NCBI RefSeq assembly: GCF_000020025.1
Contig: NC_010628.1
Span: 6,510,001-6,542,000 of the forward strand
From: Nostoc punctiforme PCC 73102
GTDB taxonomy: Bacteria; Cyanobacteriota; Cyanobacteriia; Cyanobacteriales; Nostocaceae
DNA: 32,000 nt
Reading direction: 5' to 3'
Under the pieces are notes generated by a model. It saw only the letters and a list, made by a program, of their open reading frames with translations, was not told where the DNA came from and ran no database searches. The position numbers and the translations under genes are program-made. This document shows, one piece after another, positions 3,356 to 23,089 of this stretch; the first letter of the stretch is position 1; every line of letters begins with the position of its first letter.

Positions 3356-3483
3356 TCGTTTATTGAAGAGAGACGGGGACACGGAGAGTTGTTTCTTTGT
3401 GTCCTCGTATCTGTCTTGTTTGCTCAAGTGGCTCTATTAATGACGCACTCAGAATCTGGAAATGTTACTTAGGATAAAGGCTA

Positions 3484-4221
3484 ATGGCAAATGTAACAAG
3501 TAGCAAAGAATTAATATATTGGAGTACATCAAAAATTAAAAATCAAATTTTAGAACTTGTTAAAAATCGCAATGTAGAACCGTTAAAAACCAAAGTAGAA
3601 TTTTATAAAAATGAATTAGCACTATATTTTACAGAGTTAAGCCGACGTAATCCCTTTAGTAAGGTTGCAGATCAAGTGGCGATCGTTACGGGAGTATGGG
3701 TACCAATATGGTCTACTATACCTTTTCAAGATATTTTACCTGGTAGGATACACGAGCAGTCTTACCAAATTTTCCATAATGATGGTTACTATGCAAATAT
3801 TGCCCGTTATGCACCAGGACATCAGTCTGGTTTTTGGAAAAAAATTGCATCCAAACTACCAGCTTATGACTTAATGTTGTTGCAAAAATATTCAGTTAGA
3901 GATGAGCAGTGGGATATTAAAAATGTTGGGATATTCCAAGCATTGAAAAATAGAGAAATTTCGTTGACAATTGACTGTGCAGACGAATGGTTTACGACAA
4001 CAATTAAATCTAAATTGAAGAAGACATCACCAAACATAGATTTACAGCCAGAACTTTTATTAAAAGATATGGACAGGAATACTGTCAAAAAATTTGAAAA
4101 AGTTTACTTAGCTACTTCTTTTTTAGAGCATATATATATAGATAATGACTTTCGTTTAGTTAAGAGTCAACGAGAAGCAACACAGCGACCAAGTTATACA
4201 ATAGCTATTCGTAGACGTTAA
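3484..4221 (+). CDS. Hypothetical protein, weak PAP/fibrillin-like features
   Basis: 245-aa ORF with ATG preceded by AGGATAAAGG. GVWVPIWST and the C-terminal IYIDNDFRLVKSQ resemble the GxWxLxYT and YLDxDLRI motifs of fibrillins. This is from memory only. Very AT-rich: 16 G+C in the 60 nt at 3541-3600. Confidence 0.55.
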   Translation: MANVTSSKELIYWSTSKIKNQILELVKNRNVEPLKTKVEFYKNELALYFTELSRRNPFSKVADQVAIVTGVWVPIWSTIPFQDILPGRIHEQSYQIFHNDGYYANIARYAPGHQSGFWKKIASKLPAYDLMLLQKYSVRDEQWDIKNVGIFQALKNREISLTIDCADEWFTTTIKSKLKKTSPNIDLQPELLLKDMDRNTVKKFEKVYLATSFLEHIYIDNDFRLVKSQREATQRPSYTIAIRRR

Positions 4222-4242
4222 ACTAAGAAAATTTTTAATTTT

Positions 4243-4911
4243 ATGCCGTCACTACAACAACAAGTTACTTCTACCGACAGTTATAATTACTTACTATTCT
4301 TGCCCAATGGACTGCACCCAAATGGGAGCCGCAACGAAACACAAGAGCCACTTTTACCAACAATTGTATCTTTACACGGTTCGGGTGAGCGAGGCTCTTA
4401 CTTAAATCATGTGAAAAAGCACGGTGTCGCCAAGGTTGTAGAACAACAGCCAGATTTTCCCTTCATTGTCATTTCTCCCCAATGTCCGCGCGGTGAATAT
4501 TGGAATATAGAGCGATTAAGCACCCTTCTGGATGAGGTTATTGCATCCTATCCTGTTGATCCAGATCGGGTTTACCTGACCGGTTTAAGCATGGGTGGTT
4601 ACGGAACCTGGCATTTAGCAGCAGCGCAGCCAGAACGATTTGCTGCGATCGCGCCTATCTGTGGCGGTGGTAATCCAGCCCAAGCACATAAGCTGAAAAA
4701 CCTTCCTGTGTGGGCATTTCATGGAGCAAAAGATAATGTCGTTCCCTCAAGCGAGTCCGAAATCATGGTTTCTGCACTCAAAGCCCACGATGGGAATGTG
4801 AAATTTACAGTTTATCCAGAAGCCGATCACGACTCATGGACGCAGACATACAATAATCCAGAGTTGTATGAGTGGTTTCTACAGTATCGACGACAGCCGA
4901 CTTTAGATTAA
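4243..4911 (+). CDS. Alpha/beta-hydrolase esterase (phospholipase/carboxylesterase or PHB-depolymerase-type)
   Basis: HGSGERG, nucleophile elbow GLSMGGYGTW (GxSxG), FHGAKDNVVP and ADHDSW give a Ser-Asp-His order. Confidence 0.85.
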   Translation: MPSLQQQVTSTDSYNYLLFLPNGLHPNGSRNETQEPLLPTIVSLHGSGERGSYLNHVKKHGVAKVVEQQPDFPFIVISPQCPRGEYWNIERLSTLLDEVIASYPVDPDRVYLTGLSMGGYGTWHLAAAQPERFAAIAPICGGGNPAQAHKLKNLPVWAFHGAKDNVVPSSESEIMVSALKAHDGNVKFTVYPEADHDSWTQTYNNPELYEWFLQYRRQPTLD

Positions 4912-5273
4912 AGATATTTTTTTCTGCATTTGAATACATCTCTAAATTAAAATCGCAATACAATCATTCAATTAGTTAGACTTGCTAGGATTTACGCAAG
5001 AGCTATTGCCCTAACTTCAACATATTTTCATCAAAAATATTTTTTAGCGCCCAAAGATTAAAACTTCTAACAAGTCACCACTTGCACCTTTGACATCAGA
5101 GTATATAACTTCAATAATGTTCTTACGTACAAATCCGTAGTCATATAGGATTCTTATTTCATTTTTGCCAAATATACTGAGAACTAGAAACATATCTAGC
5201 TAGCTCTTAGTCAGTTTTGCTTTGAAAAATCAAATGGGATTGCTATACGAATTGGCATTAATAGGGTTGCATT

Positions 5274-11538: not shown

Positions 11539-11561
11539 CCATATAATTCCAAAATAGCGAA

Positions 11562-11593
11562 AAAGGGAAAGGTTTTATTATCCCTTTCCCTTT
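11562..11593 (-). terminator. Stem-loop with a T-run on the minus strand (candidate terminator for the M50 protease gene)
   Basis: AAAGGGAAAGG (11562-11572) pairs with CCTTTCCCTTT (11583-11593). Read on the minus strand, the hairpin's 3' arm ends in TTT and continues into TT, giving a T5 run (CCTTTCCCTTTTTCGC). Confidence 0.5.
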
Positions 11594-11742
11594 AATTTGA
11601 GTGGAGTTTAAGCTTTAACGCCTTATGTGAATTAAAAATGCCCTACCGATAGCAAGGGTTTCAGGCTGTGGTTTAGCCAAGATGTTTAGCTATGTTGACG
11701 TATTTACGCCTTTCCAGACTCCAACTCACATAAGCCGTCTTT

Positions 11743-13046: not shown

Positions 13047-13901
13047 CTACTTCTCTATAGCTACATCAGGTAGACGACTCCACTCATTCCAAGAGCCATC
13101 GTAATTGCGAACGTTCGGATAACCTAATAAATACTTCAACACAAACCAGATATATCCAGAACGCGCACCGATAGTACAGTAGGGAAAAACTTCCTTATCA
13201 GCCGTAATGCCCTTACTGGTATAAAGATTTTTCAATTCGTCGAATGATTTAAAAGTTCCATCCTCATTCAGAGTTAAGGTATGCTCAAGATGCACTGCAC
13301 CTGGAATATGACCAGTAAGTTGACCTTCTTTTGGTGGCTGATCGAAAAACCACTCACCACAGTATTCTTGAATTGTTCGGACATCTAACAACACGCGTAG
13401 GCGTAGCCCGTCGTAGACATCGCTTCTACCAATCGATGCCTGAACTTCATTATGTAATACTCGCAGATGAGGATCAGTAGCTCTGGCACGGTAATCAGTA
13501 GCAGGAAACGTGGATAACTCAGTTGCTAGTGGACGATCTTCTGACTTCCATTTCTGGTAGCCACCATTGAGAACTTTTACATTTTCATGCCCAAAGACTT
13601 GCAAAAGCCAGAAAATCCAGGCTCCAGTTCCAGGATAACTGCCATAAGCAATTACTGTTGTGTTGTTTGTGATACCTGAACGTGCCATCAGCCTCTCAAA
13701 AGCGATCGCATCCAAATTCAGTTTCAAATCGGGCAATAGTAAGTCTGTAAAGATGTTCCAGAAGACAGCACCAGGGATGTGAGCATTTTTGTACGGTTCT
13801 GGACTCATATTCACTTCAATAATGCGGACGTTTGGATCGTTGAGATGATTTTCCAGCCATTGGGTATCAACAAGAACGGATGGATCAGCATATTGAGACA
13901 T
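13047..13901 (-). CDS. Two-domain rhodanese (thiosulfate/3-mercaptopyruvate sulfurtransferase)
   Basis: Active-site loop CTIGARSG (CxxGxR), two rhodanese-like halves and an AGGAG Shine-Dalgarno before the ATG. Confidence 0.9.
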   Translation of the reverse strand: MSQYADPSVLVDTQWLENHLNDPNVRIIEVNMSPEPYKNAHIPGAVFWNIFTDLLLPDLKLNLDAIAFERLMARSGITNNTTVIAYGSYPGTGAWIFWLLQVFGHENVKVLNGGYQKWKSEDRPLATELSTFPATDYRARATDPHLRVLHNEVQASIGRSDVYDGLRLRVLLDVRTIQEYCGEWFFDQPPKEGQLTGHIPGAVHLEHTLTLNEDGTFKSFDELKNLYTSKGITADKEVFPYCTIGARSGYIWFVLKYLLGYPNVRNYDGSWNEWSRLPDVAIEK

Positions 13902-15146: not shown

Positions 15147-15168
15147 TCATCTTCAAGTATGTTAAGTA

Positions 15169-16907
15169 GGGCTTGCTGAAAAAAAAGAAAAGGTTGCAGT
15201 CTCTAGATTCTCAGACCAAAGAAGTATATTCAGGTGCAAGACAAGAAGGTAAAATAGCCCAAAATCCTTGCATCACAGTGGTTCGTCGCAGCATAGTGTA
15301 TCATTATTAACTATGTACTGAAAAGAAGAATCAACTCCAATTCCAGCAGAAAGTTTTGAGCTTCCATTTGAGGGAAAGTTATCATCAGATAATCGTTGGG
15401 TAATTATGGCCGATTTAATACCCTGGACAGAATTTGAGTCGGAATATTCTGCCGGATTCTCCGCAGAGATAGGGGCACCAGCAAAGTCATTTCGGATGGC
15501 GTTAGGTGCATTAATAATTAAAGAGAAACTAGGTATAAGCGACAGGGAAACAGTAGAGCAAATCAAGGAGAATCCTTATTTACAGTACTTTATAGGGATG
15601 TCATCTTATAGTAACAAAACTCCATTTGACGCATCCATGTTAGTACATTTTCGAGAAAGAATCAGTGCAGAACTAGTCAATAATGTGAATCAAGAAATGG
15701 TTAAGAAGATGCTAGAGTTAGCATCTTCTATTGACACCGAAAAAAAAACAGAAGACGCTCGCGAACTCGCTAACGCTGCGCTATCGACAGAAAAAGCAGC
15801 AGAACAAGGTAATACGCTAAGAAATCGAGGGAAATTAATATTAGATGCGACTTGTGTGCCTAGTGATATCAGCTATCCAACAGATTTAAACCTATTAAAT
15901 CAAGCGAGAAAACAGACAGAAAGAATAATTGACTTGCTTTATGAACAGATAAAGGGAATATTAGAGAAAAAACCAAGGACTTACCGAGAAATAGCTAGGA
16001 AAGACTACTTAGAAGTAGCTAAAAAACGTCGTGTATCTCAAAAAGAGAGGAGAAAAGCGATTAAAAAACAACTCCAATATATTAAAAGAAACTTATCCTA
16101 TATTGACCAGCTAATTGTAGCAGGAGCATCTCTAAAAAGTTTAACTAATAGACAATATAAGATGTTGCTGGTAGTCGCAGAAGTATATCGTCAACAACTA
16201 TGGCTGTATGAAAATAAAAAGCAGAGCATTGATGACCGTATTGTAAGTTTAAGCCAACCACATATCCGTCCAATTGTCCGAGGAAAAGCGGGTAAAGCCG
16301 TGGAATTTGGCGCTAAACTATCTGCTAGTTACTTTGATGGATATGCATTTTTAGACCATATTAGATGGGATAACTTTAATGAATCAGGAGACTTAAAAAC
16401 ACAAATAGAATCCTTTAAAAACTACACTGGATATTATCCAGAATCTGTTCATGTTGATAAAATTTATCGCAAAGCGAGAAAACCGATCTTGGTGCAAAGA
16501 AAGAGGTATTAGAATCAGTGGAGTTCCTTTAGGAAGACCGCCAAAAAATGTGAGTAAAGAAAAAAAGAAGCAAGCTTTACAAGATGAGAGGATTCGTAAT
16601 TGTATTGAAGGCAAATTTGGACAAGCTAAAAGAAGATTTAGCTTGAGTAGAGTAATGGCGAAACTTCCTCATACAACTCTAACTGTGATTGCTATTACTT
16701 TTTTAGTCATGAATCTTTCTACTCACCTGTCACGGTTTTTTTGTGCCTTTTTATGTCTATTTTGGAAAAATAGACATTTTTTAGCGATTGACATAACCAA
16801 GCATTATGATTTTGCTAGCTATAGGCAACAAAAACTTATCTTTAACCTTGCTTAAATAACTAGTCAACCCAAAAGAATTGCTTTTTTATGACTTTTTCAG
16901 CAAGCCC
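15169..16907 (+). mobile_element. Defective IS element (IS5/IS1182-type DDE transposase), 1739 bp
   Basis: Perfect 15-bp terminal inverted repeats GGGCTTGCTGAAAAA (15169-15183 and the complement at 16893-16907). Direct repeat TAAGTA at 15163-15168 and 16908-16913. Because TA|GGGC...GCCC|TA is itself symmetric, the duplication could also be read as 4 bp (AAGT) or 2 bp (AG). The uninterrupted paralogous sequence at 17650-17665 supports these boundaries. Confidence 0.85.
15313..16855 (+). pseudogene. IS transposase with a nonsense codon at codon 3 and a +1 frameshift
   Basis: ATG TAC TGA at 15313-15321 is in frame with ...KEESTPIPAESFELPFEGKLSSDNRWVIMADLIPW (ORF track 15406..16512). The second ORF, 16451..16855, continues the protein (RENRSWCKERGIRISGVPLGRPPK). 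Removing one A from AAA at 16471-16473 joins ...HVDKIYRK to RENRSWCKERG. Confidence 0.8.
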
Positions 16908-16913
16908 TAAGTA

Positions 16914-17032
16914 GACGTAGTTAGGTTAATACTCAAGGTTTCAAGTTGTTGGTTTATCCAAGTAATTGCGATCGCTCCATCAGTCTCAATCGCCCGTTAT
17001 ACTTCTGTTTTAGCAATTTCCAGCAGTTGTTT
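16914..17032 (-). repeat. Copy C of the specificity-domain 3' end plus 3' UTR (degenerate remnant)
   Basis: The minus strand reads KQLLEIAKTEV*RAIETDGAIAITWINQQLETL, against KQLLEIAKTGVERAIETDEATATIWINQQLEAL at the true gene end. 82 of 98 nt match copy A by hand alignment. Its UTR part continues at 15156-15168 on the other side of the IS. Confidence 0.8.
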
Positions 17033-17408
17033 ATATATCCCTTTCTTCATCATTGATTGTCTGTTGCTCATATTCTGCAATGATGCTCTGAATATCCTTT
17101 GCTGCAATATCAACTTGTTCTGATTTGGTATAAACAGTAAGCAGAATGATTCCAGTTGCTGTTTTGACGTAATAAATAAGACGATAGCCACCACTTTTAC
17201 CTTTTTGAGCGTCGCTATTTCGGACTCTCAACTTGAAGATTGCATAACTAACACCAGGTATTTGATCTCCTGGCAACTCTCCTTGCTGAAGTTGTTCGAT
17301 AACAGGTTGTATATCATTCCGAATACTGCGATATTTCTTAGCAAGAGTGCGTAGATTTCGGTTGAAGGTTGCAGAAGCCTCAACTTGAATAAAAGGCTGA
17401 TCAGTCAT
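17031..17408 (-). CDS. RelE/ParE-superfamily toxin (HigB/Gp49-like)
   Basis: KGKSGGYRLIYYV ... ILLTVYTKSE pattern typical of this superfamily. ATG at 17408 (MTDQPFIQ) overlaps the upstream stop by 8 nt (ATGACTGA). The ORF track's longer start at 17435 is unlikely. Confidence 0.8.
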   Translation of the reverse strand: MTDQPFIQVEASATFNRNLRTLAKKYRSIRNDIQPVIEQLQQGELPGDQIPGVSYAIFKLRVRNSDAQKGKSGGYRLIYYVKTATGIILLTVYTKSEQVDIAAKDIQSIIAEYEQQTINDEERDI

Positions 17409-17640
17409 CTTTAAGACCTTCCCAAAGTTGAGCAACGGGAATTGTTTGTCCAGTCATGGCTTCCTGCCAAGCTTGCCGAAAATCTGCTAAAACTTCTGTC
17501 TGAGATGTCTCATCTGGGGTTTCTTCATCTGGAATTAAAACAATGACTTCTACACGGCTATTTTTATCTATTGTGAGAGGATGATCTAAGGTTAGTTGTC
17601 CCTCCTCATTGATCGTTGCCATGACTTTAAGTGCTTTCAT
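17401..17640 (-). CDS. Antitoxin partner (small acidic protein, AbrB/SpoVT-like N-terminus)
   Basis: 79 aa, directly upstream of and overlapping the toxin. GGAG lies 7 nt before the ATG. N-terminal GQLTLDHPLTIDKNSRVEVIVLI beta-rich segment and an acidic C-terminal half. Confidence 0.65.
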   Translation of the reverse strand: MKALKVMATINEEGQLTLDHPLTIDKNSRVEVIVLIPDEETPDETSQTEVLADFRQAWQEAMTGQTIPVAQLWEGLKDD

Positions 17641-17649
17641 TGCTACTCC

Positions 17650-17775
17650 AGTATGTTAAGTGGTTGTGATTAGGTTAATGACCAAGGTTAGATTCAAGGT
17701 TTCAAGTTGTTGGATTATCCAAGTTGTGGCTGTCGCTTCATCAGGTGCGATCGCCCGTTCTACTCCTGTTTTAGC
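17650..17775 (-). repeat. Copy B of the specificity-domain 3' end plus 3' UTR (remnant, 40-codon ORF 17656..17778)
   Basis: The minus strand reads M-AKTGVERAIAPDEATATTWIIQQLETLNLTLVINLITTT*. 70 of 80 nt match copy A by hand alignment. The UTR part (AGTATGTTAAGT...TTAGGTTAAT) is shared with copy C. Confidence 0.8.
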
Positions 17776-17783
17776 CATTCAAC

Positions 17784-18365
17784 TCAAACGTTTGAAAAGT
17801 CGATATTTTCGTAAAGTTCTGCAATTTGAATTTGCAACTCAAAGGTATTCAAAGAAAGGGTGACAGTTGGATCGTCGTATTCTGAAAATAGCCACTGATG
17901 AGCGGCTGTTTTGACATGATGCTCAACGTGTATGCGATATTGATCGATCAGCAAATATTCTTGAAAGGTAGGAATTTGACGATAGGCAACAAATTTATCA
18001 CCACGGTCATAGTTTTGGGTGGACTTAGACAACACTTCAGCGATAAAGCAAGGGTTCACCACGGTATCTTTGCGTCCAGTTTGAAGTTCTAAGGGTTTGG
18101 GCAGAACCATCGCATCAGGGTAAGTATAGAGATTTGCATCGGGAATCCAGAGTCGTTGATCCAGGATAAATACACGATAGGGCTTTCCCCGCAATGCTGC
18201 TTTCAGGATAGCCACAAGGTTGCTGGTAATATCATTATGGTCTGGGGTTCCACCAGTCATTGGAATAATTTCTCCATCACGGTATTCGTTGCGGATGTCT
18301 GAGGCGATTTCAAGTTCTAAATACTCTTCAACGGTGTAGTGTTTTGTCTCAGGTTGAGCAATCAT
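17784..18365 (-). CDS. Uma2-family (DUF820) PD-(D/E)xK putative endonuclease
   Basis: YTVEEYLELE...EYRDGEIIPMTGGTPDHN N-terminus, then YPDAMV ... IAEVLSKST (D...ExK-like) typical of Uma2. The ATG at 18365-18363 overlaps the TGA of the upstream specificity domain (ATGA). Confidence 0.9.
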   Translation of the reverse strand: MIAQPETKHYTVEEYLELEIASDIRNEYRDGEIIPMTGGTPDHNDITSNLVAILKAALRGKPYRVFILDQRLWIPDANLYTYPDAMVLPKPLELQTGRKDTVVNPCFIAEVLSKSTQNYDRGDKFVAYRQIPTFQEYLLIDQYRIHVEHHVKTAAHQWLFSEYDDPTVTLSLNTFELQIQIAELYENIDFSNV

Positions 18366-19291
18366 GTCAGTTTTACCCCCAAGGCTTCAAGTTGCTGGTT
18401 TATCCAAATTGTAGCTGTCGCTTCATCGGTTTCTATTGCCCGTTCTACTCCTGTTTTAGCAATTTCTAGCAGTTGTTTGGATTTTAGTTTTAATGAAAAT
18501 GATGATTTTATCTTCTCAGCAATCTTTTGCTGCTGATATTTTGGTAAAATTGGAATTAACAAATTGGCTAAATCTGGTTGAGAAATACTATAGTAAGCCA
18601 CACCATGAACTCGATGTTCAACCTGTAAATAACCAAATTTGGAATTCAAAAATAAACTCACATACTCTGGTAAAACTTCTTGTCTAGAAACTGAAGTTAA
18701 ACGTACAAGCATAATTTCACTACTTATAATACCGTTAACTTCTAGTTCTGTAACAACTGCGGAATTACCAAAACTACCTTTACGGGTAAAAATAATATCT
18801 CCGATTTGTAGACCTACAGACTTATCAACATTAGCCATCGTGATGGGAATTTTTACGGCACTTTCAAAATTAATCTGTCCGTTTTTGACATCACCAACAC
18901 GAATATAAGGCGTTCCTTCCTCGGTATACTCTCGATAGTCAAAACCGTTTTGAATTGGTTCTATCAATGAACCTAAGTTTTGAGATAGAAAACCACAATC
19001 TTTAATAGCTTCTTCTACTTGATCGTATTTTGGCTGGTAATATTCAGCGTCGAAGCGGCCAGAGGACAGGAACGACTCAGCAAAACTCTTGACGGCAACG
19101 GTTTCTTCCGTGGGTTGCCAGTCCTTCAAGCCAAGCTCCGACAACAGCAAATCCTCAGCTTGTTGATAAATGAGTTTGCTTGTATCTACTTCTATATGTG
19201 ATTGATCGACTAATTTCTCAATTAATTGCTGAAATAAGGTAGAGAAAATCGGAAAGAGAATATTCTTTAAGTAGTATGGGGCTAGTTCAGG
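18362..19291 (-). pseudogene. R-M-S fragment 5: central conserved region plus target recognition domain 2 (HsdS-like)
   Basis: Same frame as fragment 4: PELAPYYLKNILFPIFSTLFQQLIEKL...LSELGLKDW...GRFDAEYYQPKY...HGVAYYSISQPDLANLLIPILPKYQQQKIAEKI. ORF track 18362..19150 is the part after a TTG. Confidence 0.8.
18381..18478 (-). repeat. Copy A: native 3' end of the specificity domain (inside the coding sequence)
   Basis: Encodes KQLLEIAKTGVERAIETDEATATIWINQQLEAL. Reference copy for repeats B and C. Confidence 0.85.
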
Positions 19292-20458
19292 CTATACCCC
19301 TCCATACATCCCTTTATTAATCTGTTCTCTGCCATAAAAAGTATTTAGAAAAACTGCCAGAAAAGACTGGCTGATTTTCTTATTTCTTAGTATGAATACA
19401 TGAGATAATGCAATTGCTTCAATCTCTCCTTTGAAAATCAAGGTATCACCAAAATTTGCACCAGTTATTGTGATAAGGACATCGTTCTTTTGAATAATAT
19501 TTTTAGATAACTTTGCGGCATCTTCTTCAGATATATAAACTTGATTCGATAGGTCAACTCTTAGCGGACGCAAATTTTGAGTTCTAAAAAATAGGACTCC
19601 TGATGAGTCATCTTCTACATATTCTCGTTTGATTTCCGTTGGGTGAATAATTATAGGTTGAGTAGAACTTAGCCTTGTATGTGGCAAAGCTTTGATTTCA
19701 GCCTCGACTTGAAAGTATATTCTCTTAAAAAACTCACTGTCAAATCTAAAATGAAGGTTATGATCAAGAGCCTGATTTAAGCTCACTTCAACCGCTTCCA
19801 GCCCATCCATTAACTGCTGATACTTCACAGCATCAAACGGTGTAACAGATGGGCTGAGTTCAAAAAAACTGAAGTTCTCCTTTTTGGCAAACTCAATAAA
19901 CGCTTCCGCAATACCGTCTTCTGTCTTTCCTTCGTGGTTATACAGGTCGTGATCCACCACTAAATGTTCGTGATTATCTCGCAAAAAATCACCCTCTACC
20001 CCAACGACTCGTTGCACCGGAGAAGGCGGCATCAAGTCGCTGAGTTCATCATCGGGCGGTGAAGCCGTAGACGATGAAATCTTGCGCCAAATCTTGTCTC
20101 CAGAGTTATCCTTCCCTGACTTTCGCATCGTGGCAAAAAAGATATTGTAGTCATCCTGTCGAGGGCAGAGTGCGCCTGCTTTGGGGTCGTCGTTCCATTT
20201 CTGCACAAACAGCACTGAGGTTTTTGTGCCCGTGTGCGGCTTAAAGGTGTTGCCATGTAGTCCCACCACTGCCAAAATTCGGCAGCGTTCTGCAATAAAA
20301 TCTCGAATGTTCTTATCGGAAGAGTTGTTAAAGCGTCCTTGGGGAAGTACGATCGCCATTCTACCCCCTGGTTTCAAAAGACTTGTCGGGAAATAAGAGA
20401 GAATAGACAGCAGTGGTAGGGAAGAATGATGCTGAATATTGAAGGTGCGCTGAAGCAA
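19292..20458 (-). pseudogene. R-M-S fragment 4: methyltransferase C-terminus fused to target recognition domain 1, ending at an in-frame TAG
   Basis: The first 27 codons of the track ORF are IS-end read-through. Genuine sequence starts at KPGGRMAIVLPQGRFNN (20375-20373, just below the 20376-20378 TSD). RFDSEFF opens an HsdS-like TRD. TAG at 19292-19294. Confidence 0.8.
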
Positions 20459-21381
20459 GACCGACTGTTGAGGGCATTAACTGGGTTGAACCGGAAAGCA
20501 TTTGATGCCCTTTTGCCCACGTTTACCACGATGTACCTAGATACTCAACAGGCCAAGCCTCGTCAACGTGGCCTGGGTGGAGGACGCAAAGCCCGCTTAC
20601 TTACAGCCCAAGACAAATTGTTTTTCATCCTTTTCTATTTCAAATGTTATCCGACCTTCGATGTGGCGGGACTGCTCTTTGATATGCATCGCTCCCAGGC
20701 ACATGAGTGGATGCATCGATTGCAGCCAATATTAGAAGCGGCTTTGGGACAGAAGATGGCGCTGCCGGAACGCCATCTCGAAAGCATTGAAGCATTTTTG
20801 TCACGCTTTCCAGGAGTGCAACGAGTGATGATTGATGGGACAGAACGCCCAATTGCGCGACCTCAAGAAAGAGAACAACAACAACAGAATTACTCCGGTA
20901 AAAAGAAACGTCATACGCGTAAACACTTGGCGGCAGTTGATGAAACCAAACGGGTCTTGATCTTAAGCAAAGCACGAGAAGGCAAACTGCATGACAAACG
21001 TTTTCATGACGAAGATGACATTGCAGGTAGTGTGCCTGATGAAATTCCGATTGAAGTAGACTCGGGCTTTCAGGGATTACAGAAGCAGTATGACAATCTC
21101 CATCTTCCTCACAAAAAGCCCAAAGGGGGCAAGTTAAGTGACCTTCAAAAAACGGAGAATCGTCAATTGAGTCAATCCCGTGTAGTTTGCGAAAATGCCT
21201 TTGCTGGTGTGAAGCGCTACAACGCCGCCAGTGTCATTTATCGTAATCGGATTGAAAACTTTGATGACCATTTGATGCTGACCGCAGCAGGATTATGGAA
21301 CTTCTACTTGATGGCTGCTTAAGAGAATCCCAATTACAAGACCAGCATTGCCTCACTTATCTTTTATTTCCCGACAACTCT
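20379..21381 (+). mobile_element. IS element, 1003 bp (IS5-family, DDE_Tnp_4/Harbinger-like transposase)
   Basis: Terminal inverted repeats AGACTTGTCGGGAAATAA / TTATTTCCCGACAACTCT (1 mismatch). 3-bp duplication AAA at 20376-20378 and 21382-21384. Excision restores NLDFLKPGG in frame. Confidence 0.85.
20426..21322 (+). CDS. IS transposase, apparently intact (298 aa)
   Basis: N-terminal HTH-like LTGLNRKAFDALLPTF. DDE-type core with MIDGTERPI, YSGKKKRHTRK, VDSGFQG and VVCENAFAGVKRY. Confidence 0.88.
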   Translation: MMLNIEGALKQDRLLRALTGLNRKAFDALLPTFTTMYLDTQQAKPRQRGLGGGRKARLLTAQDKLFFILFYFKCYPTFDVAGLLFDMHRSQAHEWMHRLQPILEAALGQKMALPERHLESIEAFLSRFPGVQRVMIDGTERPIARPQEREQQQQNYSGKKKRHTRKHLAAVDETKRVLILSKAREGKLHDKRFHDEDDIAGSVPDEIPIEVDSGFQGLQKQYDNLHLPHKKPKGGKLSDLQKTENRQLSQSRVVCENAFAGVKRYNAASVIYRNRIENFDDHLMLTAAGLWNFYLMAA

Positions 21382-21384
21382 AAA

Positions 21385-21482
21385 AAGTCCAGGTTGCGCT
21401 CAATAAACAAAATGTCGCGCCCGACTTTGCTTTGCCACTTGCCATCCGGCTTTTTTGCTAGGTCATAGCGGGCAATCATGCG
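21385..21482 (-). pseudogene. R-M-S fragment 3: about 33 codons stranded between the MITE and the IS
   Basis: Own translation gives RMIARYDLAKKPDGKWQSKVGRDILFIERNLDF. It continues NPPFAGDIKEP upstream and KPGGRMAIVLP downstream. Confidence 0.75.
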
Positions 21483-21489
21483 CGGTTCT

Positions 21490-21621
21490 GATACTGTTGG
21501 CGAAAGTGTTACAAACGCATAAACAAAAGTGTTACAACTAAAAGCTGCAACGGCAGATTGAAGGTTTGAGCTTACATAATACTTTCAAATACAAGTATGT
21601 ATTACATTCGCCAACAGTATC
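21490..21621. mobile_element. 132-bp MITE inside the methyltransferase coding region
   Basis: Perfect 15-bp terminal inverted repeats GATACTGTTGGCGAA (21490-21504) / TTCGCCAACAGTATC (21607-21621). 7-bp target duplication CGGTTCT (21483-21489 and 21622-21628). No ORF. Confidence 0.8.
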
Positions 21622-22764
21622 CGGTTCTTTGATGTCCCCCGCAAAGGGCGGATTTGCCATCAGCACATCAAATTGAAACTCTCGATAGTCCTTGCTGTTT
21701 TTTGGTCGCAGCCGTTTGAGCCGTTTGAAGCCCTCATGGTAAATGTCATCCCAGTCATCTTGCTCGGTGACTTCATCCCACAGTTCATAGTCCAGGGTGT
21801 TCAGGTGCAACACATTCGTCTGCCCATCACCCGCAATCAGGTTCAGCGTCCGCGCCACCCGCACCGCCTTTTCATCAAAGTCGATGGCAAACACCTTGTC
21901 TTCCACATACTCTTTGCACCGGGGCGGCTTATCTTCCAGCGAAAATAAATGACTCGCTGACAATCCCTCATCATCTAAAATCTGCCGCCAGACATGAAAA
22001 ATCGTATGCACCGGAAACCCCGATGACCCCGCAGCTGTATCAATCATGTACTCATCCTCTTGCGGATTGAGCATTTTCACGCACAGATCAATTACATAGC
22101 GCGGCGTAAAAAACTGTCCCTTTTCACCCTTGCTGCTCTGGTTGATCAAATACTCAAATGCTTCATCGATTACATCCAGGTTGGAGTTAAACAGCTTCAC
22201 ATTTTCCAACGACGACACACAAACCGACAGGTGAGACGGCGTGAGGCTAATTTTGGCATCCTCACTAAACACCCCTTCCCATTTCTTCTTAGCCTTGTCG
22301 AAGAGATCCTGAATCTTAGTTTTCAGCGCGGCTTCTGTCTGTCCCGTATTGCGAAATTCTAGAGAACGGGTCGATCGCCTGTTGCCCTGCCCAGAATACC
22401 ACTCATCATAGAGCTTGGTGAAAATCAGCTTAAACAGTTCCTCAAATACATCTACCCCAGCATTTGCTAGCACATCATCTTCCATTTCTTCGATTAAGGT
22501 CTTGAGGGATTTATTCTCTTTCACCAACTTGTCATTGGCGATCAGGTCTTCTAGGGTAAACTTGATCTGGAGAATATCTGCCAGGGTTTGATTTGCATTG
22601 GGCAGCCCCGGAATGTCTTCAAAATAATTGGGGTCTTTGCGCTGGTAGTAGGAAATTTGATCGCCATTCGTCCAGACTGCGATCGGCGAACCTGTGGCAT
22701 TACAGTAAGAGCGCAGCTGGTCTTTCCCATCCTTCAGCTTTGGCTTTTTTAGCTCCACGAGCAT
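21538..22764 (-). pseudogene. R-M-S fragment 2: rest of the nuclease motif, HsdM-N-like region and methyltransferase motifs; the 3' end reads into the MITE
   Basis: VELKKP; QFFTPRYVIDLCVKMLNP; motif I IDTAAGSSGF; motif IV NPPFAG. After ...DIKEP the ORF enters MITE sequence (DTVGECNTY...). Confidence 0.8.
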
Positions 22765-23089
22765 ATAAACTGTGTTGGATGGAACGGTCTTTGTCCATCA
22801 CCACGATGTCTGCCCGTTTCACCTCTCGCCCAAAATTCACCCCATACTCAACCTGAATGCGACCGAGGGGATAGTGCAAGCGATCGCTCAAAACCCGTAA
22901 ATATAGTTGCCGGATTGCCTCCTCTGGCGTTAGCTTAATCGCCTTTTGGCGCACCAAACAAACTGTATAAGGAACATCACCGTTTTTGGTCGCCTTGAGA
23001 GTAATTGTCTGCTCTAACTGCTCAATTTCAGCGATCGCAAACTGCGACAGCTTATAATTTGAGTCCTTGAGGATATCGGCTAATTTCAT
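22700..23089 (-). pseudogene. R-M-S fragment 1: N-terminal HsdR-N-like PD-(D/E)xK domain up to the frameshift
   Basis: ...GREVKRADIVVMDKDR, then the frame is lost near 22775-22790. The other frame continues TVPSNTVYMLVELKKPKLKDG, so the D...ExK motif is split. Confidence 0.75.

Follow-up and report, generated by a model that had tools for sequence, protein, structure and literature searches.

Why should the end of a restriction-modification gene be repeated behind the gene itself, with small defence genes lying between the copies? The question was raised by a 32,000-nucleotide stretch of the Nostoc punctiforme PCC 73102 genome (NC_010628.1, positions 6,510,001 to 6,542,000, hereafter the window). 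A sequence-only reading proposed that three diverged direct copies (A, B and C) of the 3' end of a specificity domain bracket two minimal defence cassettes, a Uma2 gene between A and B and an antitoxin-toxin pair between B and C.

We first examined whether the repeats are real, and this observation was confirmed. A direct-repeat search revealed one 113-nt family with three members at 16920-17032, 17681-17793 and 18366-18478. A 26-nt core matched three times with at most 2 mismatches, against 0.00 expected in 100 shuffles. Through local alignment, the earlier hand counts were reproduced exactly (A-B 70/80, A-C 82/98), and B-C gave 96/126 once the shared tail was included. Copy A encodes ...KQLLEIAKTGVERAIETDEATATIWINQQLEALGVKLT followed by the stop codon. 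The features of the region are listed in the table below, in which the module edges coincide with start or stop codons as had been claimed. No terminator-like site was found on the minus strand between the copies.

Features of the array and its surroundings (window coordinates; L011, L012 and L014 are related loci used for comparison)
Coordinates	Strand	Feature	Support
18362..23089	-	Single-chain R-M-S gene (type IIB-like: HSDR_N_2 nuclease, N6-adenine methylase, two specificity domains); a pseudogene in this window	Pfam domains; frameshift near 22700-22764, 132-nt MITE-like insert at 21490-21621, IS at about 20380-21356, in-frame stop at about 19292; called as two ORFs of 524 and 592 aa in L011
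18362..18484	-	Copy A: 3' end of the specificity domain still belonging to the gene, with a Uma2-type tail (..GGGGTAAAACTGACATGA)	DNA profile matches the window at E = 5.6e-37; homology with L011 starts at 18489, the boundary of the swapped recognition domain
17784..18365	-	Uma2-family PD-(D/E)xK nuclease gene (module of unit 1); its ATG overlaps the R-M-S stop codon (TGA), its stop is 8 nt from B	PF05685, 126 bits, positions 1-168 of the 172-position profile; same gene in the same position in L011, L012 and L014
17650..17783	-	Copy B: displaced S 3' end (core 17681-17775) with a RelN-type tail ending 9 nt before the relN ATG	Repeat and profile searches; core 93% identical to the working copy of L014 and 85% identical to its own copy A
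17401..17640	-	RelN-family antitoxin gene (module of unit 2)	NF050107, 118.7 bits against a cut-off of 70
17031..17408	-	RelE/ParE-fold toxin gene (125 aa); overlaps the antitoxin by 8 nt, its TAA overlaps the first bases of copy C	PF06296, 26.3 bits, just under the cut-off of 27; TIGR02385 weak
16908..17037	-	Copy C: older displaced S 3' end carrying an in-frame stop, with a RelN-type tail interrupted by the IS	Repeat and profile searches
15156..15168	-	Continuation of copy C's tail (TACTTAACATACT) beyond the IS; ends 9 nt from the stop codon of the convergent LuxR gene	The two pieces are contiguous in L011
15169..16907	.	Insertion sequence (DUF772 transposase split into two ORFs) with terminal inverted repeats GGGCTTGCTGAAAAA and a TACTTA-like target duplication; not part of the array	Absent from L011 and L012

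The sequence-only reading also held that copy C continues across an insertion sequence, and this was confirmed by L011, a related strain (95-98% identical) that lacks both insertion sequences and in which copy C runs straight into ...CACTTAACATACTTGAAGATGAC. One point needed refinement. The 3' extension shared by B and C is the tail that precedes relN in other genomes, and copy C is therefore the head of a lost third unit and not only a closing bracket.

We next asked whether the pattern is general. Related genome and metagenome loci were pooled, and 48 loci, all cyanobacterial, carried at least two copies of the 3' end (DCR, about 110 nt). Of the 70 intervals between copies, 66 held exactly one module, two held two modules and two held none. 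All 111 module genes run in the same direction as the repeats. Ten module families, 21 distinct array compositions and up to five DCRs per array were revealed. The gene is present in many phyla, but 27 non-cyanobacterial relatives of the same gene had no second copy.

Through the comparison of these loci, the repeating unit could be defined. The tail of each copy co-varies with the module on its right, and the start of each remnant co-varies with the module on its left; the junction is the same for the same module in different genomes. The same tail precedes Uma2, relN or relB whether that copy is the working end of the gene or a downstream remnant. So the unit consists of 3' end, tail and module, and each module travels with the S 3' end and tail in front of it. 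In the window, unit 1 is A with Uma2, unit 2 is B with RelN/RelE (RelNE), and unit 3 is C with a RelN-type tail whose module has been deleted. The R-M-S gene itself is dead, while both modules are intact.

The same modules were found in different orders and combinations, such as Uma2:RelNE, RelNE:Uma2, RelB-ParE:RelNE, RelB-ParE then Uma2, Uma2 then RelB-ParE, and DUF2283:RelNE, and a module that is first, attached to the working gene end, in one genome is second or third in another. Three Nostoc genomes share the upstream GGDEF/EAL flank but differ in cassettes: the window and L011 carry Uma2:RelNE, L014, which also shares the downstream LuxR flank, carries Uma2 then RelB-ParE, and L013 carries DUF2283:RelNE. 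Gene-only sites with no cassette also exist (loci L017, L019, L026, L040 and L041). Both recognition domains differ between the window and L011 although the flanks are 95-98% identical, and the homology breaks at 18489, 19018-19178 and 19788; allele replacement at these conserved boundaries is therefore ongoing. Remnant B of locus L035 keeps about 50 nt of the 'KIKSSF' class of recognition-domain end, whereas its working copy belongs to the other class, so that the remnant came from a different, earlier allele. Likewise, the core of copy B in the window is closer to the working copy of L014 than to its own copy A. Remnants carry in-frame stops, and terminal DCRs are followed by truncated starts of further modules. 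The remnants showed the same per-position conservation as working copies, including the three-base periodicity, with no sign of a separate constraint on them.

No conserved recombinase was found near the arrays: none was annotated within 10 kb in L011, and an integrase-like gene occurred only in L031 and L132. There was no hairpin signal (z-scores -0.9 to +0.6) and no Rfam match. Two findings had been named beforehand as fatal to the capture reading, and neither was obtained: no full-length neighbouring S gene was found in any locus, and the profile found the unit only downstream of the gene or in arrays that have lost it.

How, then, might such an array arise? The sequence-only reading suggested serial, homology-guided capture of cassettes, each arriving with its own replacement 3' end and without an integrase, and this interpretation was supported by the comparison. 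With moderate confidence, we consider the region a tandem array of units, in which the first DCR is the real end of a type IIB-like R-M-S gene that has spread horizontally and the later DCRs are decaying ends of earlier alleles. In this view, DNA from another cell carrying an R-M-S allele with its own 3' end and attached module would recombine through the conserved body of the gene, and its right end would join near the resident 3' end, so that the resident 3' end and its module are pushed downstream instead of being lost. Toxin-antitoxin addiction would select against recombinants that delete a resident module, so modules would accumulate. Once units are flanked by DCRs, ordinary homologous recombination in the roughly 80-nt DCR core could move, reorder, duplicate or delete them within and between genomes, and no dedicated recombinase would be needed. 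Small deletions would remove leftover recognition-domain DNA until each remnant starts within a few bases of the preceding stop codon, and the far end of the array would erode.

The copies, the one-module intervals, the co-variation, the permuted orders and the allele differences were seen directly in the sequences, whereas displacement, retention, reshuffling and trimming are inferred from mosaic patterns only, without any observed recombination event. At least ten independent remnant starts fall within about 65 nt of the variable/conserved boundary, which trimming under constraint explains only after the fact, and a targeted break at that site is not excluded. Cassette divergence between genomes tracks divergence of the R-M-S body (91% against 93.5%, 83% against 90%, 76% against 79%), and much of the pattern could be long co-inheritance with occasional rearrangement rather than frequent capture. 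The RelN-type tail carried by both B and C also fits a single-crossover insertion of a circle, or a tandem duplication. A statistical mapping of crossover positions was uninformative (n = 31).

Among the other explanations, excision and reintegration of circles as the main route ranks highest, though with low confidence. Recombination between two direct DCR copies would loop out a circle of DCR and module, which would re-enter any DCR by a single crossover, as at the pneumococcal tvr locus but without its recombinase. Direct repeats of about 110 nt bracket every module, B and C of the window share the whole RelN-type tail on both sides of RelNE, the first DCR of locus L120 has the start typical of 'after PIN151', as if the unit had been rotated, and loci L025 and L125 carry duplicated units. 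At tvr, circles form at terminal hsdS repeats even without TvrR or RecA (PMC6265443). However, no circular junction was observed, and this route explains neither how the first DCR-module-DCR unit arose nor why the remnant of L035 derives from a different allele class. It is compatible with the displacement model rather than exclusive of it.

A dedicated, site-directed mechanism seems unlikely. Here a nuclease encoded in the arrays (Uma2, DUF559) or elsewhere would cut at the variable/conserved boundary of the S domain and repair would copy units in, in a homing-like way, or an unlinked recombinase would use the DCR as its site. Remnant starts cluster at profile positions 4-30 for at least ten junction types, the only single-gene enzyme modules are nucleases (Uma2 and DUF559), DUF559 is usually first in its array, and the arrays occur only in cyanobacteria. 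Nevertheless, most arrays contain no nuclease module, no recombinase is linked to the arrays, the DCR shows no palindrome or hairpin, remnant starts vary from about 50 nt upstream of the DCR to 30 nt inside it rather than sitting at one point, and the remnants show no conservation of their own.

It is very unlikely that B and C are leftovers of a former tandem set of full S or R-M-S genes decayed by deletion, with the modules simply old neighbours; the sequence-only reading had likewise found random deletion of neighbouring hsdS genes a poor fit. The remnants are pseudogenised, that of L035 keeps its piece of recognition-domain end, and deletions clearly occur (L023_B, L030 and L146), but no locus out of about 170 showed a second full or half S gene downstream, truncation points are the same for the same left-hand module across genomes and all lie within about 65 nt, and neither the one-module intervals nor the permuted orders fit this reading. 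Equally improbable is that the remnants are kept as a promoter, operator or RNA-processing site for the following module, since, although the tail carries the ribosome-binding site of the next gene and remnants persist across deep divergence, there was no structure signal or Rfam match, promoter-like hits were fewer than in shuffles (6 against 11.9), the conservation profile is that of a coding sequence identical to the working copies, and modules also occur without any remnant in front of or behind them.

Is such an arrangement already known? The sequence-only reading knew of no description, but it is less unprecedented than was thought, with a close conceptual precedent in the orphan toxin-immunity module arrays downstream of rhs and cdiA genes (PMC3967940) and in the tvr locus (PMC6265443). 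In the rhs and cdiA arrays, a main gene is followed by tandem modules, each starting with a fragment of the main gene's conserved sequence; the fragments lack their own function and look displaced, an orphan in one strain is the main gene tip in another, arrays reach many modules, and homologous recombination through the shared fragment is the proposed motor. Here, however, the repeated piece is the very end of the gene and not the region in front of a variable tip, and the modules are self-contained toxin-antitoxin or nuclease genes, not extensions of the main protein plus a cognate immunity gene. In the pneumococcal tvr (SpnIV) phase-variable type I locus, direct repeats derived from hsdS, including terminal repeats, bracket a toxin-antitoxin pair and guide excision and reintegration, but tvr has its own recombinase (TvrR) and silent recognition-domain segments between the repeats and serves to switch specificity, whereas here no recombinase and no recognition domain between copies were found, and the content is diverse defence and addiction modules.

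Integron arrays likewise consist of co-oriented, compact cassettes of one gene or one operon, each delimited by a repeated site; in both, toxin-antitoxin cassettes are common and new cassettes probably enter at the proximal end. Here there is no intI integrase and no attC hairpin, and the 'site' is about 110 nt of coding sequence from the host gene. Recombination units spanning conserved cores in tandem paralogues (S. aureus lpl cluster, PMC2568036) and reassortment of recognition domains in type I / type IIB enzymes (PMC4027205, PMC3874165) share the inherited unit that runs from one conserved core across variable DNA to the next, with crossovers inside the core, and recognition-domain swapping at the same boundaries was seen here between the window and L011. 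Those cases shuffle parts of the same gene family, whereas here unrelated genes occupy the slots between cores.

Unlike in the rhs and cdiA arrays, recombination with a remnant would not change what the R-M-S enzyme does. Considering that the one-module-per-repeat layout recurs across the cyanobacterial loci with its module types in varying order, the array looks like a recombinase-free way of stacking and swapping small defence genes.

We confirmed the three direct copies of the 3' end of the specificity domain (copies A, B and C) that the sequence-only reading had described in this window. A repeat search returned one 113-nt direct-repeat family with exactly three members, and a 26-nt core matched three times, against none expected. 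Local alignment gave identities of 70/80 between A and B and 82/98 between A and C, exactly as had been counted by hand, and the listed coincidences of module edges with start or stop codons are all correct. The R-M-S gene is followed by a Uma2 gene, a RelN-family antitoxin gene, a RelE/ParE-like toxin gene, an insertion sequence (IS) and a convergent LuxR-type gene. A promoter and terminator scan gave nothing above shuffle expectation, and no terminator-like site lies between the copies on the coding strand. A related strain, L011, located on an 8.33-Mb contig and 95-98% identical to the window, lacks both insertion sequences and shows copy C running uninterrupted into the bases where the sequence-only reading had placed its continuation beyond the IS. 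Apart from this contig and the 7.2-kb contig L012, searches with the exact proteins mostly returned contigs of 2-3.5 kb with the same arrangement as the window.

Coordinates of the features in the window and in related loci (L numbers)
Sequence	Feature	Coordinates	Strand	Remarks
Window	R-M-S gene	23089 to 18362	minus	pseudogene
Window	Frameshift in the R-M-S gene	near 22700-22764
Window	MITE-like insert in the R-M-S gene	21490-21621		132 nt
Window	IS in the R-M-S gene	about 20380-21356
Window	Nonsense codon in the R-M-S gene	near 19292
Window	Segment with both recognition domains, different from L011	18489-19788		compared with L011 7838-9149
Window	Start of copy A, break of homology with L011	18489
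Window	Central conserved region	19018-19178		89.5% identical to L011
Window	End of the second break of homology with L011	19788
Window	Uma2 gene	18365-17784	minus
Window	RelN-family antitoxin gene	17640-17401	minus	79 aa
Window	RelE/ParE-like toxin gene	17408-17031	minus	125 aa
Window	HIP1 palindromes	17745-17752 and 16966-16973
Window	IS with DUF772 transposase	15169-16907		target duplication about TACTTA
Window	Transposase ORFs	15406-16512 and 16451-16855		overlapping
Window	Continuation of copy C	15156-15168
Window	Small dispersed repeat	455-505 and 11539-11618		same place in L011, 14160-14288
L120	ORF pair in the place of the R-M-S gene	3447-5100		compared with L028
L125	Tail with G/C hairpin before DUF559	3990-4100 and 4560-4660		duplicated in tandem
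L104	Tail with G/C hairpin before DUF559			duplicated in tandem
L156	Tail with G/C hairpin before DUF559	about 1470-1560	reverse
L035	112-aa protein paired with a PIN-domain toxin	13437-13775		also in L028, L120 and L153

The host gene contains, in order, an HSDR_N_2 nuclease domain (PD-(D/E)xK type), an N6-adenine methylase (N6_Mtase/Eco57I) and two Methylase_S recognition domains. This is the single-chain architecture of type IIB enzymes of the AloI/TstI type, as described for TstI (PMC4027205), while the NCBIfam MADS hits were far below their cut-offs. The nuclease-methylase part is 73-98% identical at the protein level in 80 genomes from cyanobacteria, Bacteroidota, Proteobacteria, Firmicutes and Acidobacteria, and the identity of 73-76% between cyanobacteria and the other four groups (L013-L092) points to wide and fairly recent horizontal spread. 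Between the window and L011 the homology breaks exactly at the start of copy A, returns for the central conserved region and breaks again beyond it. Therefore, both recognition domains were exchanged in a recent swap of specificity with breakpoints exactly at the conserved regions, while everything around them stayed 95-98% identical.

In the window the R-M-S gene is dead, with four separate lesions: a frameshift, a MITE-like insert, an IS and a nonsense codon. The MITE-like insert sits inside the methylase coding region, has 45-nt terminal inverted repeats (GATACTGTTGGCG...CGCCAACAGTATC) and is flanked by a duplicated AGAACCG. The transposase of the IS next to copy C is split into two ORFs, through either a programmed frameshift or decay. 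Two short stretches elsewhere in the window match the same place in L011 at 99-100% identity and represent a small dispersed repeat unrelated to the array.

In contrast to the R-M-S gene, Uma2 and RelN/RelE are intact. The Uma2 protein matched PF05685 with 126.2 bits against a cut-off of 27, covering positions 1-168 of the 172-position profile. The antitoxin matched the RelN family (NF050107) with 118.7 bits against a cut-off of 70, and its gene comes first and overlaps the toxin gene by 8 nt. The toxin gave 26.3 bits against a cut-off of 27 with PF06296 and 20.3 against 27.9 with TIGR02385.

We built a DNA profile of the repeated 3' end (here called DCR) and searched the 80 genome loci and 87 metagenome loci found with a degenerate core pattern. 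The pattern is general in cyanobacteria: forty-eight loci carry two to five copies. Of the 70 intervals between consecutive copies, 66 hold exactly one module, two hold two modules and two hold none, and all 111 module genes point the same way as the repeats. Many metagenome contigs come from similar populations, and the loci comprise 21 distinct array compositions. In 27 non-cyanobacterial loci the gene's own 3' end is never repeated, and some cyanobacterial genomes have the gene with nothing attached. Among plasmids, RelNE relatives were found at 66-71% identity but no DCR arrays.

Number of intervals between DCR copies for each module family, by Pfam and NCBIfam assignment
Module	Intervals
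MNT-HepT	23
RelN-RelE	12
Uma2	8
DUF559 endonuclease	7
HicBA	6
unknown 112-aa protein + PIN151	6
RelB-ParE	4
DUF2281 + PIN140	2
DUF2283	1
VapB75 + PIN133	1

The 112-aa protein is conserved, has no Pfam match and is presumably a new antitoxin family. The order of modules is permuted between genomes: Uma2 then RelNE in the window, RelNE, Uma2 and Uma2 in L025, RelB-ParE then RelNE in L052, RelB-ParE then Uma2 in L031, Uma2 then RelB-ParE in L014, DUF2283 then RelNE in L013, and DUF559 followed by three MNT-HepT modules in L156. The Nostoc loci L013 and L014 share the window's upstream GGDEF/EAL flank, and L014 also shares the downstream LuxR flank, yet they carry different cassettes.

Through the comparison of all junctions, we found that the repeating unit is composed of the 3' end, a tail and a module. 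The last 20-45 nt of each copy goes with the module on its right: ..GGGGTAAAACTGACATGATTGC comes before Uma2, a near-identical ..ACTGACATGA before MNT, ..ATTAACCTAAC..CACTTAACATACTGGAGTAGCAATG before relN and ..AATTTAATGGAGGCATAATG before relB, whether that copy is the working end of the gene or a remnant. The first bases of each remnant go with the module on its left: TTTGAGTTGAATKGCTAAAAC follows this Uma2, ATATAAACAACTGCT follows the RelE toxin and ..GCTAGAAATT follows ParE. The same junction is found for the same module in different genomes. So a module does arrive with its own replacement 3' end, as the sequence-only reading proposed. Terminal copies are regularly followed by the truncated start of yet another module. 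Copy C of the window carries the relN-type tail up to 9 nt before where the relN ATG would be, and only 9 nt then remain before the LuxR stop codon; C is therefore the head of a third unit that has been deleted. The tail in front of DUF559 contains a G/C hairpin, CCCCCCTTTTTAAGGGGGG followed by TAGGGGGGATCAATGAAC, which could be a terminator or a small mobile repeat. The cyanobacterial HIP1 palindrome GCGATCGC lies inside many copies of the repeat, in the window and in other loci, at two different positions.

The remnants are ends of earlier alleles. They carry in-frame stops, and their per-position conservation mirrors that of working copies, including the three-base periodicity, with nothing to suggest a constraint of their own. 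The remnant of L035 keeps about 50 nt of a recognition-domain end of the 'KIKSSF' class, while its working copy belongs to the other class. The B core of the window is 93% identical to the working copy of L014 but only 85% identical to the window's own copy A. Decay was observed in several places: L023_B lost its middle between two GGAGTA(G/A)AAC repeats, L030 joined a truncated parE to a relN-type tail, and L146 has three copies with nothing between them. Arrays can also outlive the gene. L120 shares the upstream flank of L028, but where L028 has the R-M-S gene L120 has a 187-aa ORF and a 388-aa protein that is TIR-like judged from its N-terminal sequence alone, and the array downstream remains. 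In L172 only the last third of the gene is left.

The anatomy of the arrays is shown directly by these comparisons, and we hold it with high confidence. The mechanism is inferred, with moderate confidence, and cleavage by the host enzyme on both sides of a bipartite site and the nuclease activity of Uma2 are likewise inferred from sequence alone. We favour displacement followed by homologous reshuffling. In this view an incoming allele recombines through the conserved body of the gene, brings its own 3' end and module, and leaves the resident 3' end and module downstream; addiction by resident toxin-antitoxin pairs would select against recombinants that delete them. Once modules are flanked by DCRs, ordinary recombination in the roughly 80-nt core would move, duplicate or delete them, and small deletions would trim leftover recognition-domain DNA. 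This is favoured by the ongoing exchange of recognition domains at the same boundaries, the remnant from a different allele class, the interchangeable main and orphan positions, and the absence of a linked recombinase and of hairpin structure. However, cassette divergence tracks divergence of the gene body, so exchange may be infrequent. To locate crossovers, we measured how strongly each DCR column associates with the left-hand and right-hand module class, and found no gradient, but among 31 non-redundant remnants only, a sample confounded by lineage. On the whole the observation of the sequence-only reading stands, and its interpretation is supported with refinements.

The complete tail shared by B and C in the window also fits a single-crossover insertion of a circle or a tandem duplication. 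Remnant starts for at least ten junction types fall within about 65 nt of the variable/conserved boundary, which a targeted break would explain more directly. We might speculate that a break at this boundary of the S domain, made by the array's own nucleases (Uma2, DUF559) or by another cyanobacterial enzyme, drives homing-like copying of units of 3' end and module between the many chromosome copies and between cells. The 3' end of the gene would then be a true cassette-capture platform, and cyanobacteria would have a recombinase-free counterpart of the integron for defence and addiction genes, but we consider this unlikely. A dispersed repeat was rejected because every profile hit is downstream of the gene or inside an array, within the 170 loci of up to about 21.6 kb that were examined and not across the whole source genome, and an assembly artefact was rejected because the same structure appears in many independent assemblies.

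The nearest described system is the orphan toxin-immunity array behind rhs and cdiA genes, where fragments of the main gene's conserved region head each displaced module and an orphan in one strain is the main tip in another (PMC3967940). Here too the main gene is followed by tandem modules that each start with a fragment of its conserved sequence, with all copies on the gene's strand and downstream of it, and Uma2, RelNE and RelB-ParE each occur directly after the working gene end in some genomes and after a remnant in others. However, the modules (Uma2, RelN/RelE, MNT/HepT, HicBA, PIN pairs and DUF559) are separate genes with their own start codons, not a C-terminal toxin domain of the main protein followed by its cognate immunity gene. 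The pneumococcal tvr locus uses direct hsdS-derived repeats around a toxin-antitoxin pair for excision and reintegration (PMC6265443), and B and C likewise bracket RelN/RelE. But tvr has its own recombinase and silent recognition domains, while we found no linked recombinase and no interval with Methylase_S-like sequence beyond about 50 nt.

Integrons share the layout of compact, co-oriented cassettes separated by a repeated site. However, no recombinase family, including an intI tyrosine recombinase, appears among the annotated genes within 10 kb in L011, and an integrase-like ORF occurs only in L031 and L132. Both strands of A, B and C fold no better than shuffled sequence (z-scores -0.87 to +0.60), which rejects hairpin-type sites such as attC, and an Rfam search gave only a chance-level hit inside the IS. 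Units that run from one conserved core to the next were described for the S. aureus lpl cluster (PMC2568036). Literature searches, including a 2025 review of restriction-modification biology (PMC12707154), turned up no description of the present arrangement. What is new is that a displaced-end module array is attached to a restriction gene and loaded with autonomous defence and addiction modules.

The assembly of defence islands is mostly explained by integrases, transposons and phage hot spots. Here a horizontally mobile restriction gene appears to collect and exchange at least ten families of toxin-antitoxin and nuclease modules using only the homology of its own last ~110 bases, which extends the 'displaced tip' logic of Rhs/CDI toxin loci to restriction-modification genes and to autonomous modules. 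The intervals between repeats could serve as a sieve for new small defence genes, of which the 112-aa partner of PIN151 is one example with no family match. If addiction stops resident modules from being lost during allele replacement, arrays grow like a ratchet, and that could help explain why cyanobacterial genomes are so rich in toxin-antitoxin genes.
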